A stretch of 64,000 nt of DNA from Mustelus asterias (taxonomy: Eukaryota): positions 50,716,001 through 50,780,000 of the forward strand of contig NC_135808.1 in NCBI RefSeq assembly GCF_964213995.1, in the 5' to 3' direction. The notes below the pieces were generated by a model. It was not told the origin of the DNA and searched no databases. It saw nothing but the letters and a program-made list of their open reading frames with translations. Within the stretch, counting starts at the first letter, position 1. Every line of letters starts with the position of its first letter. A program made the position numbers and the translations under genes. Positions 41,320 through 56,188 of this stretch are shown here, piece after piece.

Positions 41320-41950
41320 TGACTTCATCATTGACCAGATACTGAACTGGGTGAGCCATAGAAAAACCGTGGTTACAAGAACAGGTCAGAGACTAGGAAT
41401 CCTGCAGTGAGACGCTCACCTCCTGACCCCCAAGGCCTGTCCACCATCTACAAGACACAAGTGTGATGGAATACTCTCCACTTGCCTGGATGAATGCAGC
41501 TCCAACAACATTCAAGAAGCTAGACACCATCAGGACAAAGCAGCCTGCTTGATTGTTACCCCTTCCACAAACCCTCCACCACCAATGAACAGTGACAGCC
41601 GTGTGTACCATCTACAAAATACGCTGCAGGAACTCACCAAGTCTCCTTCAACAGCACCTTCCAAACACACAAGCACTACCACCTAGAAGGACAAGGGCAG
41701 CAGACACCTGGGACACCATCACCTGGAGATTCCCCACCAACTCATTCACCATCCTGACTTGGAAATATATCGCCCTTTCTTCACTGTCACTGGGTCAAAA
41801 TCCTCAAACTCCCTCCCTAACAGCATTGTGGATGTACCAACACCTCATGGACTGCAGCAGTTCAAGAAGGCAGCTCACGGGCAAATAGGGATGGGTAATA
41901 AATGTTGGCCAAGCCAGCGATCCCCACATCCTGTAAAAATGAATTAAAAA
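41320..41950 (+). mobile_element. LINE 3' fragment
   Basis: VMEYSPLAWMNAAP, AVCTIYKIRCRNSP; same family as 7020-7875. Confidence 0.85.
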
Positions 41951-41954
41951 GGGA

Positions 41955-44900
41955 AGGTCCGGAAATCAGAGCTTTGCGCACTTGAAATGGGAGACAGCGT
42001 GACTGAGGCAGCCAGAGTGGGATTGAAACTTGGCCTTTTGAAACAGTGCGGTAATTCAGTGCAGAGTGGGAGGAGATGCTGTTTTCCCTTTTTGTTTTGT
42101 TTTCTTTCTTCTTGCTCCGTAACTGTTATTCTGCAGGGAGAAATCCAGAGAGTATCCTGGGAAAGTAAGTGATATGAAGACCAACCTCATGTGAGAAGTG
42201 AAGGTCAGAGTTTAATAAATTTTCTTCAATAATTTAATTGGTGAGAGAAATGTCGGTCAAATGCTGGCACTTGGGAGATGTGGGAGATCCGTGAGGCTTC
42301 CAGCGTCTCGGAAGACTACATCTGCTGGAAGTGCACCCAATTGCAGCTCCTCACAGACCACATGGATAGGTTGGAGCAGCAGTTGGATGCACTTCGGAGC
42401 ATGAAGATGGTGGAAAGCATCATAGGCAGGAGTTTTAGTGATGTGGTGACACCCAAGGTGCAGGCAGATAGATGGGTGACCGCTAGAAGGGGCAGGCATT
42501 CAGTGCAGGAATTCCCTGTGGTCGATCCCCTCTCTAACAAGTCTACCATTTTGGATATTGTTGGGGGGATGGCCTATCAGGGATAACAGCAGCAGCAGCC
42601 AGAGCAGTGGCACCATGGCTGGCTCTGTTGCTAAGCAGGGAGGGATAAAGAGCACTCGAGCAATAGTTATCGGGGACGCTATAGTTAGGGGTACGGATAG
42701 GCAATTCTGTGGACGTAAAAGAGACTCCAGGATGGTATGTTGCCTCCCTGGTGCCAGGGTCAGGATATCTTTGAACGGGAGAGAGCATTCTGAAGGGAGA
42801 GGCTGAACAACCAGAGGTTGTGGTACGTATTGGTACTAACGACATAGGTAGAAAGAGTGATGCGGTCCTGCAGCAGCAGTTTAGGGAGTTAGGTAGAAAG
42901 TTAAAAAGCAGGGTCCCTAGGGTTGTAATCTCAGGATCACTCCCTGTGCCATGTGCCAGTGAAGCTAGAAATAGGAAGATAGTACAGCTCAACACGTAGA
43001 ACATAGAACATAGAACATTACAGCGCAGTACAGGCCCTTCGGCCCTCGATGTTGCGCCGACCAAGGAAACCAATCTAAAGCCCATCTGACCTACACTATT
43101 CCAATATCATCCATATGTTTATCCAATGACCATTTAAATGCCCTTAATGTTGGCAAGTCCACTACTGCTGCAGGCAGGGCATTCCATGCCCTTACTACTC
43201 TCTGAGTAAAGAACCTACCTCTGACATCTGTCCTATATCTATCACCCCTCAATTTAAAGCTATGTCCCCTCGTGCTAGCTATCACCATCCGAGGAAAAAG
43301 GCTCTTACCATCCACCCTATCTAATCCTCTGATCATCTTGTATGCCTCTATTAAGTCAACTCTTAACCTTCTTCTCTCTAACGAGAACAACCTCAAGTCC
43401 CTCAGCCTTTCCTCATAAGACCTTCCCACCATACCAGGCAACATCCTGGTAAATCTCCTCTGCACCCTTTCCAATGCTTCCACATCCTTCCTATAATGCG
43501 GTGACCAGAACTGTACGCAATACTCCAAGTGCGGCCGCACCAGAGTTTTGTACAGCTGCAACATGACCTCCTGGCTCTGAAACTCAATCCCTCTACCAAT
43601 AAAAGCTAACACTCCGTACGCCTTCTTAACAACGCTATCAACCTGGGTGCCAACTTTCAGGGACCTATGCACATGGACACCCAGATCTCTCTGTTCATCC
43701 ACACTACCAAGTATCTTACCATTAGCCCAGTACTCTGTAATCCTGTTACTCCTTTCAAAGTGAATCACCTCACACTTTTCTGCATTGAACTCCATTTGCC
43801 ACCTCTCAGCCCAGCACTGCAGCTTATCGATGTCCCTCTGTAACCTGCAACAACCTTCCGCACTGTCCACAACTCCACCAACTTTAGTGTCATCCACAAA
43901 TTTACTAACCCATCCTTCTACGCCCTCATCCAGGTCATTTATAAAAATGACAAAAAGCAGTGGTCCCAAAACAGATCCTTGCAGTACACCACGAGAAACT
44001 GAGCTCCAGGATGAACATTTTCCATCAACCACCACCCTCTGTCTTCTTACAGCTAGCCAATTCCTGATCCAAACTGCTAAATCACCCTCAATCCCATGCC
44101 TCCGTATCTTCTGCAATAGCTTAGCGTGGGGAACCTTATCAAATGCTTTACTGAAATCCATATACACCACATCAACTGCGTTACCCTCATCCACCTCTTT
44201 GGTCACCTTCTCAAAGGACTCAATAAGGTTTGTGAGGCACGACCTACCCTTCACAAAACCGTGCTGACTATCCCTAATCAAATTATTCCTTTCTAGATGA
44301 TTATAAATCCTATCTCTTATAATCCTTTCCAATACTTTGCCCACAACAGAAGTAAGGCTTACTGGTCTATAATTACCGGGGTTGTCTCTACTTCCCTTCT
44401 TGAACAAGGGGACAACATTTGCTATCCTCCAGTCTTCTGGCACTATTCCTGTAGACAATGACGACATAAAGATCAAAGCCAAAGGCTCTGCAATCTCTTC
44501 CCTAGTCTCCCAGAGAATCCTGGGATAAATCCCATCCGGCGCAGGGGACCTATCTATTTTCACACTTTCCAGAATTGCTAACACCTCCTCCTTATTAACC
44601 TCAATCCCGTCTAGTCCAACAGCCTGTATCTCAGTATTCTCCTCGACAACATTGTCTTTTTCCTGCGTGAATACTGATGAAAAATATTCATTTAGCGCCT
44701 CTCCTATCTCTTCAGGCTCCACGCAGCTGAACAGCTGGTGCAGGAGGGAGAGTGTCAGATATCTGGACCATTGGGATCTCTTCCAGGACAGGTGGGACCA
44801 GTTCAAGAAGGACGGGTTGCGTCTAAACTGGAGGGGTGTAAATATTCTGGCCAGTAGGTTTGCGAGTGCCACGCGGGAGGGGGGGTGGGTGGGGGGTGGG

Positions 44901-45439
44901 CGGGGGGAGGGGGTACTAAAGCAAAGGTGAATTGACCGAAGGGGAATGAGAGAGTCGGGCCAGTAAGACTCAGTGAAAGAGGGGGCAGGGTGGGGTTGCT
45001 GATCAAAGAGGGTCTGGTGAACTGAAGAGCATTTGTTTCATTGCGAGAAGTGTTACGGGTAAGGCAGATGAACTTAGAGCTTGGATTGGAGAACCGTGGT
45101 TTGTTCTCATTGGAACGATAGAGGTTGAGGGCGACCTGATAGACGTCTACAAGATTATGAGGGGCATGGACAGAATGATTAGTCAGAAGCTTTTTCCCAG
45201 GGTGGAGGAGTCAATTACTAGAGGGCATAGGTTTAAGGTGCGAGGGGCAAGGTTTAAAGGAGATGTTCGAGGCAACTTTTTTAAACAGAGGGTGGTGGGT
45301 GCCTGGAACTCGCTACTGGGGGATGGAGTGGAAGCAGATACGATAGTGACTTTTAAGGGTCTTGACAAATACAAGAATAGAATGGGAATAGAGGGATATG
45401 GTCCCAAGAAGGGTAGGGGGTTTTAGTTCAGTCGGGCAG
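41955..45439 (+). mobile_element. CR1 with ORF1 (zinc finger + SGNH esterase), ORF2 start joined to a 3' fragment; split by an antisense CR1
   Basis: YICWKCTQLQLL, VIGDAIVRG, VCCLPGARV, IGTNDIG, DGLRLN. LKSICFIARSVTGKADELRAWI then jumps near 45088 to the ORF2 C-terminus. Confidence 0.85.
42997..44723 (-). mobile_element. 5'-truncated young CR1 LINE with complete open RT domain
   Basis: About 540 open codons: NYRPVSLTS, QHGFVKGRSC, DFSKAFD, KFVDD. (TTCTATG)n tail; CACG at both junctions. Confidence 0.95.
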
Positions 45440-45441
45440 TG

Positions 45442-47803
45442 TGGTGAACCATTGTTGGTTACCACCAGGAGTGCTGAGCCATGGTCTGGCCAGTACTATG
45501 AGTCTGTAGATATGTTACTGTTGGGGTTAGGGTTGGGCTGTTCTACCTGTTAATATCGTCCTATGGTACACCCCAGTTGACTCCGCCTCCTGGGAGAGGT
45601 ATAAAGGTCACTGCTCTGCCTGGTGACCCTTTAGTCTGGGATTGTATACTGCATATAGTAGCTCCGTTATTGTTGGTAATAAAAGCCTTTATTTCCCGGG
45701 TACATCCTGCCTCCCGTGTGATTTATCGCGCATCAATTTTATTGCCAACAAGTAAAATTTTTTTTCTTTAAAAAACAAAAGAAAACCATGGAGCAAATGC
45801 TGAAACCCGAGCAGCTTACGTTGGACCCACGTGCGGTGGGAGCATCGAACACTTTCGACCACTGGTTGAAGTGTTTCCAAGATTACCTCGACGCCTCCAC
45901 AGTGGTCAACAACGACGCCGACAGACTCCGGGTCCTCCACGCGAGGGTAAGCGACACTGTATACCTCGCGATCCGTGCAGCCACCGACTACAAAGGGGCC
46001 CTCGAGCTTCTCAAAAAGTGATACAACAAACCGCCGAATGAGATCCATGCTCGACACCTTCTAGCCACTCGACGGCGGCAGCCCGGCGAAACGACGGAAC
46101 AGTACGTGTGTGAACTTCAGCAGCTAGCCAGAGCCTGCAACTGCAAGTCAGTGTCGGCAGCCCAGTACATGAGCGACTTAGTTCGAGATGCGTTCGTGGC
46201 GGGAATCGGCTCGTCGTACATCCGCCTTCGGCTGTTGGAGCAAGGTAACCTCGATCTCACTAAAACCATAGAGTTAGCTGACGCTCTAGAAACGGCCTCC
46301 AAAAGTCTGGAGATGTACCCCGACGACCACGTGGGGACATTGTGGCAGGGGCAGTCACAGACCCCACTTCATTCAGTGGGACCGAAAAACTGCGCGATTG
46401 CGTTTCCAGCCTCGGACCTGACGACGGCAGCAGCTCCAGGTGGCCCGCGGTGTTACTTCTGTGGGGGGGTGAAACACCCTCGGCAGCGATGTCCAGCTAA
46501 AGCGGTGTTGTGCTCTGCTTGCGGCAAGAAGGGACATTATTCCAAAGTATGCCGGACCAAACCTCCATCCAAAAACAGCAGTGCGGCGTGTGACTCCCCG
46601 GAGCCGGCCTCCTTGTCGTCTGCGTCTTCAAGGTCTTCTACCACGTGCGATTCCAGGACGTCGCCATTCCGAACGACGGAGTCGCAAGACACGTGCGACC
46701 TGCAGGGGCCGCAGGTTTTGGCGCCATCGTCCACGTGCGACCTATGGGGGCAGCCATTTTGGTCGGCACCGACCGCGAATGACCAGCAGGGGTCGTCATC
46801 AACCATCTCAGCTGCCTGCAGTTGCACCCACGAACCAACGGTGGTGTTGATCATCCTGGACCAGGCCAAGCCTCACAGACTCGACAAGTCCATGATGGAC
46901 ATACAGGTAAACAAACGCCAGATTTATTGTTTGTTTAACAGCGGGAGCACGGAGAGCTTCATTCACCCTGACACCGTGAAGCGGTGTGGTTTCCAGATTC
47001 GGACTGTCAAGCAGACAATTTCGATGGCGTCAAGGTCCCGATCTGTCACCGTGCTAGGGAGCTGCGTTGTTAATCTGACGGTGCAGGGCACGATTTACGA
47101 GAACTTCAGGCTCCTTGTGTTACCGCACCTTTGCGCGCCGATACTCCTAGGACTAGATTTTATGGTCCACCTGAAGAGTGTAACCCTGCAGTATGATGGG
47201 CCACTCCCCCCGCTTTCAGTGGAAGACCCGCAGCCTCTAAATTGCCCAACGCGTTCCACATGTAGTCTCTCAACGATCAGGATTACCACACCCTCCCTAT
47301 TCCAGAATCTCGTGCCAGGCTGCAAGCCCATCGCAACAAAGAGCAGGCATTACAGCGCTGAGGATCGGATCTTCATTCGATCTGAAGTTCAGCGGCTCCT
47401 CAAGGAAGGGATCATCCAACCTAGCGCTAGTCCTTGGAGAGCGCAAGTCGTGGTGGTTAAGAATGGGAACAAACCCCGGATGGTCATAGACTATAGTCAG
47501 ACCATTAACAGATACACCATTGTTGGTTACCACCAGGAGTGCTGAGCCATGGTCTGGCCAGTACTATGAGTCTGTAGATATGTTACTGTTGGGGTTAGGG
47601 TTGGGCTGTTCTACCTGTTAATATAGTCCTATGGTACACCCCAGTTGGCTCCGCCTCCTGGGAGAGGTATAAAGGTCACTGCTCTGCCTGGTGACCCTTT
47701 AGTCTGGGATTGTATATTGTATATAGTAGCTCTGTTATTGTTGGCAATAAAAGCCTTTATTTCCCGGGTACATCCTGCCTCCCGTGTGATTTATCGCGCA
47801 TCA
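45442..47803 (+). mobile_element. Young Gypsy LTR retrotransposon, internally deleted (LTR 45442-45735, gag-pro-RT start, LTR 47516-47803)
   Basis: LTRs differ at about 6 of 288 positions. gag ATG at 45788 with one stop at 46019; CYFCGGVKH/CSACGKKGHYSKVC; LFNSGS protease; RT breaks at MVIDYSQTINRYT. Confidence 0.93.
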
Positions 47804-48364
47804 CCCAGGATATACTCCAAATGTTTAACCACTCACTTCCCCTGTCTCTATCTGTTTGCAGACTCTCTACCTCCTCTTTAGAACTTACTTTCCCACCTAT
47901 CTTAGTGTCAAAGAACAAAGAACAAAGAAAATTACAGCACAGGAACAGGCCCTTCGACCCTCTAAGCCTGCACTGACCATGCTGCTGTCATTGGGACATC
48001 AGCTCCATTCACTCCCTTCATCCAAGTCATTGATATGGATTGTGAATAGTTGTGGTCCCAGCACTGATTGTTCCAGAACTCCACTAATTACAGCTTCCCA
48101 ACCCCAAAACAATCATTTGTCCCCTCTCTCTAGTTTCTGTGAACGAACCAATCCTCTACAATGCTAATATGTTACCCACACATCATGAGCTTGTATCTTG
48201 TGTGGTAAGATTTGATGTGGCAATTTATAAAATACCTTTTGGAATTCCCTAAATATCACATCTACAAGTTCCCTTCATCCACTTTGTGACTTCCTCAAAA
48301 GTGGACAATCACACATTTATAACATAAAGAAACTGCTCCACATCGACCATGGTGTCCATGTCCT

Positions 48365-48597
48365 ACTGGACCCTCCAATAGGGACCAGTAAACATGGGCC
48401 TCCTTCCCACTGGAGCCTCCAATAGGGACCAGTAAACATGGGCCTCCTTCCCACTGGAGCCTCCAATAGGGAGCAGTAAACATGGGCCTCCTTCCCACTG
48501 GAGCCTCCAATAGGGACCAGTAAACATGGGCCTCCTTCCCACTGGAGCCTCCAATAGGGAGCAGTAAACATGGGCCTCCTTCCCACTGTAGCCTCCA
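48365..48597. repeat. 44-bp minisatellite, about 5 copies
   Basis: cctccaata recurs at 48372, 48416, 48460, 48504 and 48548. Confidence 0.95.
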
Positions 48598-48894
48598 GTA
48601 GCTGAGCTTCAAACTCCACATCCTATCCATCACGTAGGCCTCTTATTTCCATCTCCACAACGTTGTCCGTCTTTACACAACATCAGCCCTATGAGCACAG
48701 ATACCCTAATCCCTAACTCTATTATTCCGATATCCTCTCCCGGCTCCCTTCATCCGCACGCCATAAACCCCAACTTGTCCCAAATGCAGTGGGTCCGGTC
48801 CCTGTCTCACGCCAAGTGTCCTTCCAATACTACCCCTGACCTCATTGACCTATCACCCCTGCCCTCACTGATATATTACCCTTGGCCTCAGTGA

Positions 48895-49829: not shown

Positions 49830-52250
49830 TTTAATAATTTATTCATTTACGGGAAGTTGGTGTCACTGGCTACACCAGCATTTATTGCCCATCCTTAATT
49901 ACCCTGAGGAGATGGTGGTGAGCTGCCTTCTTGAACAGCTGCAGTCCATGAGGCGTAGGCACAACCACAGTGCTGTTAGGGAGGCAGTTCCAGGATTTTG
50001 ACCCAGCGACAGTGAAGGAATGGCACTATATTTCCAAGTCAGGATGGTGAGGGACTTGGAGGGGAATCTCCGGGTGGTTGTGTTCCCAGTGATCTGCATC
50101 TTTCCAGTTAGTAGTGGTTGTGGGTTTGGAAGGTGCTGCCTCAGGAACCTTGGTGAGTTCATGCAGGGCATCTTGTAGATGGTACACACGGCTGCCACTG
50201 TTCAATAGTGCTGGAGGAATTGAATGTTAGTGGAAGGGGAATCAATCAAGCGAGGCTGCTTTGTCCTGAATGATGTTGAGCTTCTTGAGTGTTGTTGGAG
50301 CTGCACTCATCCTGGGAAGTCGAGAGTATTCCATCACACTCCTGACTTGTGCTCTGTAGATGGTGGGGAGGCTTTGGGGAGCCATGAGGTGAGTTACTCT
50401 CCACAGAATTCCTAACCACTGACCTGCTCTTGTAACCACAGTATTTATATGGCTTTTCCTGTTCAGTTTTTGGTCAATCATAACAACCAGGATGTTGATA
50501 GTGGGGGATTCAGCGATGGTAATGACAATTAATGTCAAGGGGAGATGTTAAAATTCTCTCTTGTTGGAGATGGTCCTTGCCTGGCACTTGCGAGGTGTGA
50601 TTGTTACTTTCCACTTGTCACCCCAAGCCTGGATATTGTCCAGATCTTGCTGCATTTGGACATAGACTGCTTCAGTATCTGAGGAGTTGTGAATGGTGCT
50701 GAACATTGTGCAGTCATCAGTGAACATCCCCACTTCTGACCTTATGATGGAGGGATGGTCATTGATGAAGCAGCTGAAGATGGTTGGGCCGAGGACACTA
50801 CCCTGAGGAACTCCTGCAGTGATGTCCTGGGGCAATCTCAGATTGAAATCCTAGAACCACAACCATCTACCTTTGTGCTGGGTGTGACTCCAACCAGTGG
50901 AGTTTTCCCCTGATTTCCATGGGTTCCAGTTTTACGAGGGCTCCTTGATGCCACTCTCGGTCAGATGCTGCCTTGATGTCAAGGGCAGTCACTCTCACCT
51001 CACCTCTGGGGTTCAGCTCTTTTGTCCATGTCTGAACCAAGGCTGTAATGAGGTCAGGAGCTGAGTGACCCTGGTGGAACCCAGACTGAGTGTCAGTGAG
51101 CAGGTTATTGCTGATTACAGCTGTTAGAATGTGTCATCGACAGTTCTATCAATCTCTTTGCTGATGATGCAGAGTAGACTGATGGGGCGGGAATTGGCCA
51201 GAATAGATTTGTCCTGTTTTTTGGTATACAGATCATACCTGTACAATTTTCCACATTTCCGGATAGATGCCAGTGTTGTAGCTGTACTGGAACAGCTTGG
51301 CTGGGGACGAGGGAGGTTCTGGAGCACAAATCTTCAGGACTATTGCTGGATTATTATCGGGACCCAGAGTCTTTGCAGTATCAGCCTTATCTTTTCCACT
51401 AATGTGCTGGGTTCCGCCATCATTGAGGATGGGGATATTTGTGGAGCCTCCTCCTCCAGTGAGTTGTTTAATTGTCCACCACCATTCACGGCTGAATGTG
51501 GCAGGACTGCAGAGCTTAGATCTGATCCATTGGTTATGGGATGGTTTAGCTCTGCCTATCACTTGCTGCTTCTGCTGTTTGACACACAGTCCTGTGTTGT
51601 AGCTTCACCAGGTTAACACCTCATTTTTCAGTACATCTGCTGTTGCTCCTGCCATGCCCTCCTGCGCTCTTCATTGAACCAGGGTTGATCCCCAGGCTGG
51701 GTGGTAATGGTAGAGTGGGGGATATGCCGGGCCATGAGGTTACAGATTGTGGTTGAGTACAATTCTGCTGCTGCTGATGGCCCACAGTGCCTCATGGATG
51801 CCCAGTTTTGAGTTGCTAGATCTGTTTGAAATCGATCCCATTTAGCACGGTGGCAGTGCCACACAACACGATGGAGGGTATCCTCAATGTGAAGATGGGA
51901 TTTTATCTCCACAAGGACTGTGCGGTGGTCACTCCTACCGATACTGTCATGGACAGATGCATCTGCGGCAGGCAGGTTGGTGAGGATGAGGTCGAGTATG
52001 TTTCTCCCTCTTGTTGGTTCCCTCACCACCTGCCGCAGTCCCAGTCTAGCAGCTATGTCCTTTAGGACCCGGCCAGCTCGGTGTGTGGTGGTGCTACCGA
52101 GTAACTCTTGGTGATGGACATTGAAGTCCCCACCCAGAGTACACTCTGTGTCCTTGCCACCCTCAGTGCTTCATCCAAGTGCTGTTCAACATGGAGGAGA
52201 ACTGATTCATCAGCTGAGGGGGTTATGGTATTTAGTTTCCTTGTCCATGT
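49830..52250 (-). mobile_element. Decayed APE-RT LINE, counterpart of 8985-12150 without the SINEs
   Basis: VREPTRGRNILDLILTN, GVPQGSVLGPTIFSCFIND, MFTDDC. Confidence 0.9.
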
Positions 52251-53134: not shown

Positions 53135-55148
53135 CAGGTGTAGTGAGAGACACAGTGCAGTAAAACAGTATTGACCGTTGCCTAGTGACAGGTGTAGTGA
53201 GAGACACGGTGCAGTAAAACAGTATTGACCGTTTCCTAGTGACAGGTGTAGTGAGAGACACAGTGCAGTAAAACAGTATTGACCGTTTCCTAGTGACAGG
53301 TGTAGTGAGAGACACAGTGCAGTAAAACAGTATTGACCGTTGCCTAGTGACAGGTGTAGTGAGAGACATGGTGCAGTAAAACAGTATTGACCGTTTCCTA
53401 GTGACAGGTGTAGTGAGAGACACGGTGCAGTAAAACAGTATTGACCGTTTCCTAGTGACAGGTGTAGTGAGTGACACAGTGCAGTAAAACAGTATTGACC
53501 GTTTCCTAGTGACAGGTGTAGTGAAAGACACAGTGAAGTAAAACAGTATTGACCGTTTCCTAGTGACAGGTGTAGTGAGTGACACAGTGCAGTAAAACAG
53601 TATTGACCGTTTCCTAGTGACAGGTGTAGTGAGAGACACAGTGCAGTAAAACAGTATTGACCGTTTCCTAGTGACAGGTGTAGTGAGAGACACGGCGCAG
53701 TAAAACAGTATTGACCGTTTCCTAGTGACAGTTGTAGTGAGTGACACAGTGTAGTAAAACAGTATTGACCGTTTCCTAGTGACAGGTGTAGTGAGTGACA
53801 CAGTGCAGTAAAACAGTATTGACCGTTTCCTAGTGACAGATGTCGTGAGTGACACAGTGCAGTAAAACAGTATTGACCGTTTCCTAGTGACAGGTGTAGT
53901 GAGAGACACAGTGCAGTAAAACGGTATTGACCGTTTCCTAGTGACAGGTGTAGTGAGTGACACAGCGCAGTAAAACGGTATTGACCGTTTCCTAGTGACA
54001 GGTGTAGTGAGAGACACGGTGCAGTAAAATGGTATTGACCGTTTCCTAGTGACAGGTGTAGTGAGTGACACGGTGCAGTAAAACAGTATTGACCGTTTCC
54101 TAGTGACAGGTGTAGTGAGTGACACAGTGCAGTAAAACAGTATTGACCGTTTCCTAGTGACAGGTGTAGTGAGAGACACGGCGCAGTAAAACAGTATTGA
54201 CCGTTTCCTAGTGACAGTTGTAGTGAGTGACACAGTGTAGTAAAACAGTATTGACCGTTTCCTAGTGACAGGTGTAGTGAGTGACACAGTGCAGTAAAAC
54301 AGTATTGACCGTTTCCTAGTGACAGATGTCGTGAGTGACACAGTGCAGTAAAACAGTATTGACCGTTTCCTAGTGACAGGTGTAGTGAGAGACACAGTGC
54401 AGTAAAACGGTATTGACCGTTTCCTAGTGACAGGTGTAGTGAGTGACACAGCGCAGTAAAACGGTATTGACCGTTTCCTAGTGACAGGTGTAGTGAGAGA
54501 CACGGTGCAGTAAAATGGTATTGACCGTTTCCTAGTGACAGGTGTAGTGAGAGACACAGTGCAGTAAAACAGTATTGACCGTTTCCTAGTGACAGGTGTA
54601 GTGAGTGACACGGTGCAGTAAAACAGTATTGACCGTTTCCTAGTGACAGGTGTAGTGAGTGACACAGTGCAGTAAAACAGTATTGACCGTTTCCTAGTGA
54701 CAGGTGTAGTGAGTGACACGGTGCAGTAAAACAGTATTGACCGTTTCCTAGTGACAGGTGTAGTGAGTGACACGGTGCAGTAAAACAGTATTGACCGTTT
54801 CCTAGTGACAGGTGTAGTGAGAGACACAGTGCAGTAAAACAGTATTGACCGTTTCCTAGTGACAGGTGTAGTGAGTGACACGGTGCAGTAAAACAGTATT
54901 GACCGTTTCCTAGTGACAGGTGTAGTGAGAGACACAGTGCAGTAAAACAGTATTGACCGTTTCCTCGTGACAGGTGTAGTGAGAGACACAGTGCAGTAAA
55001 ACATTATTGACTGTTTCCTAGTGACAGGTGTAGTGAGTGACACAGTGCAGTAAAACAGTATTGACCGTTTCCTAGTGACAGGTGTAGTGAGAGACATAGT
55101 GCAGTAAAATGGTATTAACCGTTTCCTGGTGTCAAGTGTAGTGAGTGA
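53135..55148. repeat. 54-bp minisatellite, about 37 units
   Basis: Unit caggtgtagtgag(a/t)gacac(a/g)gtgcagtaaaacagtattgaccgtttcctagtga, strict 54-bp period. Confidence 0.98.
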
Positions 55149-56188
55149 GAGGGAAAAATTTAGATTGGGGACTCAAAATGTCACTCACTGAATTGTTTCA
55201 AACAATTAAAAAGGTGAAAATGAATTCATTTGCTGCAAATCGCTAAAGCTTTCATCCAGGAGAGAGAGAGAGAGATCGTGAGAGACAGAGAGAGAGAGAG
55301 AGAGGGAGCGAGAGCATGAGAGAGGGCAAGTGAGTGACAGACCGAGAGGGTTCCCCTCGGGGCGTTCTTGAGCAGTGACAGGCAGGGACTGAGGAAATGG
55401 GAGCTTCGGCTGTTTAGATTGTTCCTGTCGGTGGAAGTCTCCAAGATTCCTCCCACCCCCTCCACTACTACTTGCAGCTTTGTTTTGAGTCTGAAAGTTT
55501 AATGTTGTTCATATAATTGTTATCAGAATGGAAATATACATATCTTTCTATTTGTGTGTGTTTGTGTACAATGAAGAATTTGTGTGTGTGAGCTTTCATG
55601 TGTTTCCTTCCCTAATTTCTCATTTGTGTGTGAAGTTTCAGCAATTTGAAGCTTCACAATGTGGATAATGAGTTGGATTCAAGGACAATATAATGACACA
55701 AAGCAAAGTTTGAAGTGAAAAGGTTTGAGTTGAGATTTCTGTCCAGAAAGCAGAGTTTGATTGTTCTCTAAAGATACACCAGCTTTTCCCTGTGTTGAAA
55801 ATGAAGCAGCTTTGCAGGAGCCTCTTGCAGACGAACACAGAGTGAACTCTTTGCAACAACAGCTTAAACTTTCAGATTGCTGAATCCATTCCCCTGAGCA
55901 GAATGCACCTTGTGTCTTTATTTCCAGAGAACCACAAATGGAACAAGATTGCCAGCAGCATTAAGACTCTGAGAATTGATCTGAAGATTTTTATTCCCAC
56001 AGCATGGTCATGGTTTAGAACCAGGTGGCACAGTGGGACCTGGGTTTGATTCCCGGTTTGGGTCACTGTCTGTGTGGAGTTTGCACATTGGTTTAGAACC
56101 TTTACTTTATGTTGAAAGAAAATGATTTAACCCCTTCAGGGCCAATGGTATCTTTTGCTTGGGGACAAGAGGTCTGATATGGACACGC

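Follow-up and report, generated by a model that had tools for sequence, protein, structure and literature searches.

To our knowledge, self-priming of reverse transcription has been shown experimentally solely for Tf1 of fission yeast. The primer of that element consists of the first 11 bases of its RNA, freed by an RNase H cut between bases 11 and 12 (excerpts of PMC7175516 and PMC5341516), and Tj1 of S. japonicus is likewise described as a self-primed Ty3/Gypsy element (excerpts of PMC4600332). Self-priming has been predicted for Tf1/sushi, Tcn1, and the plant TAR Copia elements on the criterion of at least 10 bp of complementarity starting 0–5 nt past the LTR (excerpts of PMC6317226), and in the literature searched, such predictions concern mainly chromoviruses and one plant Copia lineage. 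The fungal GalEa elements have no tRNA primer-binding site (PBS) and carry a conserved pairing, the Conserved Hairpin Site, at the PBS position (excerpts of PMC5445492); these elements belong to the Copia superfamily and have both arms of the pairing downstream of the LTR, whereas in the group described here one arm lies in the LTR. Here we analyse a Gypsy element in a 64,000-nt stretch of the Mustelus asterias genome (contig NC_135808.1, positions 50,716,001–50,780,000; hereafter the window, to which all coordinates refer unless stated otherwise). As in Tf1 and Tf2 of S. pombe and in Tj1, there is no tRNA site, the PBS is complementary to a segment of the LTR, and a cut would free the primer. 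It is probable, in our judgment, that the shark group is self-primed in a Tf1-like manner with an internal arm (i.e., that the element RNA is cut at the 3' end of the arm and the arm then serves as primer).

The element, on the plus strand, is a damaged member of a Gypsy group that lacks a chromodomain. Its 5' LTR (45440–45735, 296 nt, TG...CA), with ends set from 20 family copies, is followed by a broken open reading frame (45788–47517) for gag with two CCHC knuckles, protease, and the start of RT; gag is interrupted by an in-frame stop, the protease motif is altered, and RT is truncated. A second LTR (47516–47803), which lacks its first 8 nt, has no polypurine tract (PPT) upstream, and differs from the 5' LTR at 6 positions over 288 nt, abuts the truncated RT directly via a 2-nt microhomology and carries a copy of the arm at 47738–47752. 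The outer flanks of the window's two LTRs show no matching target duplication, and this, together with the missing 8 nt and the microhomology joint, suggests that the downstream LTR may come from a different insertion; its doubtful origin does not affect the pairing result described below. Family copies are near 4.7 kb long, with a purine tract two bases upstream of the 3' LTR and a coding order of Gag with two CCHC knuckles, PR, RT, RNase H, and integrase, and the 5-bp target duplication is exact in 15 of the 18 scorable among the 20 compared. The intact ones have the usual LTR hallmarks (TG...CA, PPT, 5-bp duplications), and the family copies thus combine all the features of a Ty3/Gypsy LTR retrotransposon (LTRs, PPT, target duplication, and PR-RT-RH-IN), the window copy having suffered deletion.

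Predicted self-primed members of Gypsy (Tf1/sushi and Tcn1) are chromoviruses, and the shark group, unlike the Tf1/sushi chromoviruses, has no chromodomain: no Pfam chromo match at E 0.1 was found in any of the four Pol-containing proteins scanned, and the GPY/F motif was found in none of 81 full-length relatives, 78 of which have the double zinc knuckle. Among the Pol relatives, those with a name are from rays, catsharks, and a sea anemone, and the rest are mostly metagenome proteins (54–80% identity); IMG/VR contained no relative. In its compact single-ORF build and double-knuckle Gag the group may resemble Cigr-1, which makes a Cigr-1/Mag assignment a tentative lead; Cigr-1 is filed under Mag in a supplement row (PMC6238403). 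As to the surroundings, the 5' LTR sits in the tail of a LINE-like repeat (43091–45439, with LINE-like fragments that include a 648-codon minus-strand frame), and this tail is not resumed past the second LTR. Inverted similar repeats (77–86%) at 41327–41878 and 49918–50481 lie ∼8 kb apart on either side of the element region, and tandem arrays with 44-nt and 54-nt units occur at 48317–48645 and 53135–55172, the 54-nt-unit array holding two open minus-strand frames, each of more than 600 codons.

The first 8 nt past the 5' LTR contain no TGG. Between the LTR end at 45735 and the helix lies a single unpaired A. The leader at 45737–45751 is the exact reverse complement of 47738–47752 in the downstream LTR, each 15-mer being single in the window, and it pairs with one G-U (a difference at 45677) to the copy in R of the 5' LTR, the arm (45670–45684), in which AATAAA occupies 45678–45683. 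The original prediction had named this pairing, the missing TGG-type PBS, a TATAAA at 45600, and a TTAGT at 45631, and all were found as claimed. RNA folding, which it had proposed as a check, places the helix in both the minimum free energy and the centroid structures (z = −3.9 for 45625–45795 and −2.8 for 45633–45810), and a 15-bp helix was reached in none of 200 LTR shuffles. Among the 30 best family copies, 27 pair perfectly with their own 5' LTR, two carry a G-U, and one a mismatch. The folds further predict a T-run/A-run leader hairpin (45762–45785), the length of which varies among copies, and a pairing of 45661–45667, just 5' of the arm, with the gag start (45788–45794). Helices between the arm-flanking segment and the gag start average 7.1 bp over 35 distinct pairs, against 5.0 bp (maximum 5.5) after shuffling, and covary weakly (67 of 1000 permutations equally good, p ∼0.07). 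Three insertions appeared to differ between their 5' and 3' arms (T/G), but the genome-wide counts of 8 T and 2628 G show this to be an effect of query bias.

The pairing is conserved well beyond this copy. A pattern fixed only in AATAAAAGCC and the LTR–leader junction, so that an overlap with AATAAA is built in, matches 10,825 LTR–leader junctions genome-wide and none in the reversed control. The leader from LTR+2 to +16 covaries with a 13–15 nt arm ending AATAAAA: in the sample used (the first 30 junctions in genome order), helix positions 8–14 are Watson-Crick in 202 of 210 cells, compared with a mean of 101 and a maximum of 130 in 5000 permutations, and the 21 distinct types give 139 Watson-Crick pairs out of 147, against 68 when permuted. 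Position 15 is paired in 26 of the 30 junctions and position 16 in four. Relatedness of the sequences inflates these permutation tests; the counterweight is that all four pair types are represented at positions 8 and 9. One family group of 90 junctions, 60 of them hand-picked family-B loci, has five arm types and is fully matched in 85.

Distant relatives, in which the original prediction had proposed to test for covariation, keep the pairing as well. Of 79 loci from metagenomes, upstream DNA sufficed in 47 and showed a repeat in 21; 14 were tabulated, leaving out near-duplicates (L119, L141, and L144), a neighbouring element (L147), a partial LTR (L176), and non-LTR repeats (L177 and L187); the LTR ends of L111, L116, and L143 were placed by eye. 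All 14, which represent ∼10 families and share 46–64% RT–RNase H identity with the shark family (11 measured), have a helix of 11–19 bp. Over the 22 elements tabulated in all, leaders pair with their own arms over a mean of 13.7 bp and with the arms of others over 6.8 bp, the helix starts at LTR+2 in 19 (12 of the 14 distant ones included), leaders begin ATTT or TATT in 21, and complementarity to an LTR segment reaches at least 11 bp in 20, so that the shark group shares with Tf1/sushi, the Tcn1 clade, and TAR the property (10 bp or more) from which their self-priming was predicted. The arm of distant relatives usually terminates TAAA(A) ahead of (A/G)CC. Read by eye, a small hairpin, (A/G)CC...GG(T/C), lies 3' of the arm in L111, L112, L113, L116, L118, and L143, and could be a cleavage determinant. 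Two families (L419, L421, and similar matches) were seen to have the leader TTTTATTA(G/A)CAAG followed by a T-run, and their helix may be shorter, at about 12 bp; the leader of L430 mismatches its arm at position 9.

A tRNA primer fits these data poorly. None of the eight leaders tested contains TGG, and among 50 distinct host tRNA sequences, which span only ∼9 isotype classes, the best match to a leader is 6–9 bp; a tRNA 3' end cannot match, and the original prediction had called for comparison with tRNA 3' ends and halves. Both refuting outcomes that it had named, a tRNA or tRNA fragment matching the site and loss of the pairing in intact copies, failed to appear in these samples. The leader changes family by family with its arm, so no fixed tRNA could follow it, and the LTR–leader covariation likewise argues against half-tRNA priming. 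At L190–L219 (G000:C16:97.2–98.6 Mb), genes for tRNA-Lys(TTT) and tRNA-Thr form a large tandem cluster whose unit measures close to 1.8 kb.

It is conceivable that the helix mainly hides the 5' poly(A) signal or regulates translation and that an unspecified host RNA acts as primer, but we regard this as highly improbable. HIV-1 offers a parallel, with a poly(A) hairpin that covers the 5' AATAAA and a U5–AUG duplex that pairs an upstream segment with the gag start; however, HIV-1 has a separate tRNA PBS, whereas the covering strand in the shark element is the PBS itself. A regulatory role would account for a second helix over the gag start, for the overlap of the arm with AATAAA in all sampled shark junctions (an overlap imposed by the pattern), and for AATAAA or ATTAAA in five of the 11 distant elements with a called hexamer, but the other six have GTTAAA or TTTAAA, and L112 has a separate, free AATAAA 27 nt downstream, outside the helix. 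Moreover, a primer must bind directly past the LTR end, where the sequence changes with the arm, and such a role predicts neither the LTR+2 register nor the minus-strand ends at the arm boundary described below. Counted one by one (AATAAA 2, ATTAAA 3, GTTAAA 5, TTTAAA 1, uncalled 3), the hexamers of the distant relatives vary, so the register is better conserved than the poly(A) signal. The original prediction had allowed for self-priming, poly(A)-signal hiding, or both; the first is strengthened by minus strands that end at the arm boundary, and the second, weakened by the varying hexamer and by L112, is a possible side benefit rather than the conserved core.

Further evidence comes from aberrant insertions. 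One of the 30 sampled junctions, L261 (1262–1801), is a palindrome: a whole LTR, the A, and the primer site are followed by R and U3 in inverted orientation as far as the U3 end, and a target duplication flanks the whole on either side. A directed palindrome pattern gave 195 matches; fold-backs made up 17 of the first 30 loci and, as judged by eye, 68 of the 100 matches listed first, the others being ordinary leaders. By extrapolation, palindromic LTR insertions number ∼130 genome-wide (∼1% of junctions). Among 51 fold-back loci examined, 34 of which were hand-picked from match lists, 35 are full palindromes with two U3 ends, an exact 5-bp direct duplication, and a turn exactly at the arm:leader helix; such palindromes occur in many families, the window's included (further examples are L442 and L451). 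Some fold-backs continue into inverted PPT and integrase sequence, and one of this kind, L468 (G000:C4:140231500-140240500, 430–1581), was seen to end at a cryptic attachment-like site in inverted integrase with a matching 5-bp duplication. Because direct duplications flank two U3 ends, integrase appears to have acted on a cDNA in which a plus strand ending in a copy of the primer site had annealed to the arm. In Tf1, about half of the cDNA ends 3' in a PBS copy that has stayed single-stranded (excerpts of PMC11042837). The palindromes, with their turning point at 45737–45751 in window terms, show that the 15-mer behaves as a primer site; the primer itself is not named by them.

A second class of aberrant insertions bears on the primer. 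Patterns of inverted U5 followed by direct U5 and the primer site (gaps of 15–169 nt or 40–70 nt, depending on end type) gave 28 distinct loci. In 18 of these the inverted strand copies the full U5 through GCC, stops at most 1–4 nt into the arm, and then turns; the 5-bp duplication is exact in 10 of the 18 (scored by script). The clean ends come from several families with differing U5, among them the window's (L501 and L503), often with just 1–2 nt of homology at the turn. The remaining 10 loci are ambiguous (L489, L493, and L506), longer (L494, L514, and L510), turned inside U5 (L504, L505, and L508), or unrelated (L509); the boundaries of L489, L493, and one strand of L494 were read by eye. 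The inverted strand is minus-strand strong-stop DNA, so the point where it ends corresponds to the 5' terminus of the RNA template. Projected onto the window, the template of a short strong-stop DNA would be 45685–45735 (the rest of R plus U5), a match to the inverted left-hand segment of these insertions, and the putative cut would fall at the arm/GCC boundary, 45681–45685. In all 18, GGC is followed by one or more T, which would fit either a cut one base within the A-run or the addition of untemplated bases. Since AG(G/C)CT-like sequence is frequent at the fold-back target, microhomology may contribute to the clustering of the ends. No copies truncated at the cut were found, but none were found at a control site either, and this count is hence uninformative, as is the finding of no polyadenylated LTR copies of family A. 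In a single case, L363, an allele swap confined to the PBS fits primer copying. In L360 and L362, both single insertions, the two LTRs differ in the subfamily type of their U3 (in L360 of the arm as well), through either intermolecular second transfer or gene conversion; a reading of the hybrid LTR of L360 as a recombination breakpoint at the cut was rejected because a subfamily with such an LTR exists (L362).

An end at GCC could mark a start site rather than a cut. If the RNA started at (A)GCC after AATAAA, the arm would be confined to the 3' region, and the primer would have to come from a trimmed 3' copy, in the same or a second RNA. This would explain the minus-strand ends without a 5' cut, suits those aberrant insertions in which inverted PPT and integrase sequence continues past the primer site, and has a candidate promoter in a TATATA found 26–30 nt upstream of AATAAA in eight of the 30 junctions. 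We nonetheless think it quite unlikely: TATATA is missing from 22 of the 30, whereas upstream TATA and initiator motifs are nearly universal; 3' trimming to the arm would take away the R that strand transfer requires; and most palindromes end exactly at the U3 end, which implies plus-strand DNA as the template. The upstream motifs are a TATA-like hexamer 75–80 nt (29 of 30 junctions) and a YYAGTY 45–49 nt (28 of 30) upstream of AATAAA. In the window, the predicted promoter (45583–45636) consists of a GC box (45583–45588), TATAAA (45600–45605), and an initiator (45631–45636), from which we infer a start at 45633; the constant spacing of the motifs puts the arm 35–39 nt after the predicted start (i.e., it would sit about 37 nt inside the RNA), close to the ∼40 nt originally proposed. 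Contigs from four runs yielded no transcript starts or ends, and neither a primer fragment nor a poly(A) site was seen. Given a promoter upstream and a template end at GCC, a cut at the arm's 3' end is the best reading of the ends.

In the classical Tf1 geometry, the arm's 5' end would itself be the 5' end of the RNA, from the start or after trimming, and the plain 15-mer would act as primer. This geometry is attractive in that the helix stops sharply at position 15, the junction of L506 lies exactly at the arm's 5' end, and a longer primer has left no footprint: none of the 28 loci has a minus-strand end at the initiator, a search for inverted copies stopping at the initiator gave one match, which continues to the U3 end, and the predicted 37-nt extension is thus unrepresented among the products. 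The presence of TATA and initiator upstream of AATAAA in those 29 and 28 of 30 junctions nevertheless makes this geometry unlikely, as does the retained complementarity of the segment 5' of the arm to the gag start, at the permutation p of ∼0.07 given above.

Self-priming with an internal arm, the reading that we favour, would proceed as follows. Transcription would begin at the initiator ∼37 nt ahead of the arm, as the conserved motifs indicate; arm and leader, which covary, would pair in the RNA, as the predicted structure has it, and close a loop of ∼50 nt; and the RNA would be cut in the A-run before GCC, at the site indicated by the fossil cDNA ends. The enzyme would probably be the element's own RNase H, by analogy with Tf1, the mechanism of which also calls for a U5-IR-like structure; the group has an RNase H domain, with predicted activity. 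The freed 3'-OH would prime a minus strand of ∼52 nt, which would move to the 3' end via a short overlap, predicted at ∼20 nt. The primer would then be copied into plus-strand DNA, the end of which would sometimes anneal to the arm, a probable route to the palindromic products that integrase inserts. The helix would also cover the 5' AATAAA. Compared with Tf1, then, the primer segment is 13–15 nt in sharks and 11–19 nt in relatives, and the arm, predicted to lie ∼37 nt inside the RNA and not at its 5' end, overlaps the poly(A) hexamer.

The literature searched, which took in few subscription journals and did not extend to Repbase, holds no account of priming in this clade or of palindromic insertions, and novelty in print is not assured; Repbase may annotate self-primed animal Gypsy families. 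The feature is real and conserved; the mechanism is a variant of one already known, and the genomic evidence for its cut site is unusually direct. What is new here is that aberrant integrated cDNAs with 5-bp duplications record the priming mechanism. On a wider proposal our judgment is evenly balanced: that an animal-wide, non-chromoviral Gypsy lineage self-primes independently of Tf1 by means of an excised internal, capped primer of ∼52 nt ending in its own poly(A) signal, that a single helix supplies this primer, covers the gag start, and keeps polyadenylation silent at the 5' end, and that more than 100 integrated abortive cDNAs map the cut within a few bases. The group is abundant in the genome of a vertebrate, and relatives of it occur in rays, a sea anemone, and marine metagenomes; this abundance and spread suggest that tRNA-free priming may be common in animals. 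The exact bases for 5' end mapping are now named, and aberrant insertions provide a general genomic assay: in high-copy families they reveal where strong-stop DNA ends and hence where the primer is cut. For the elements themselves, priming without a tRNA would evade control by tRNA fragments.
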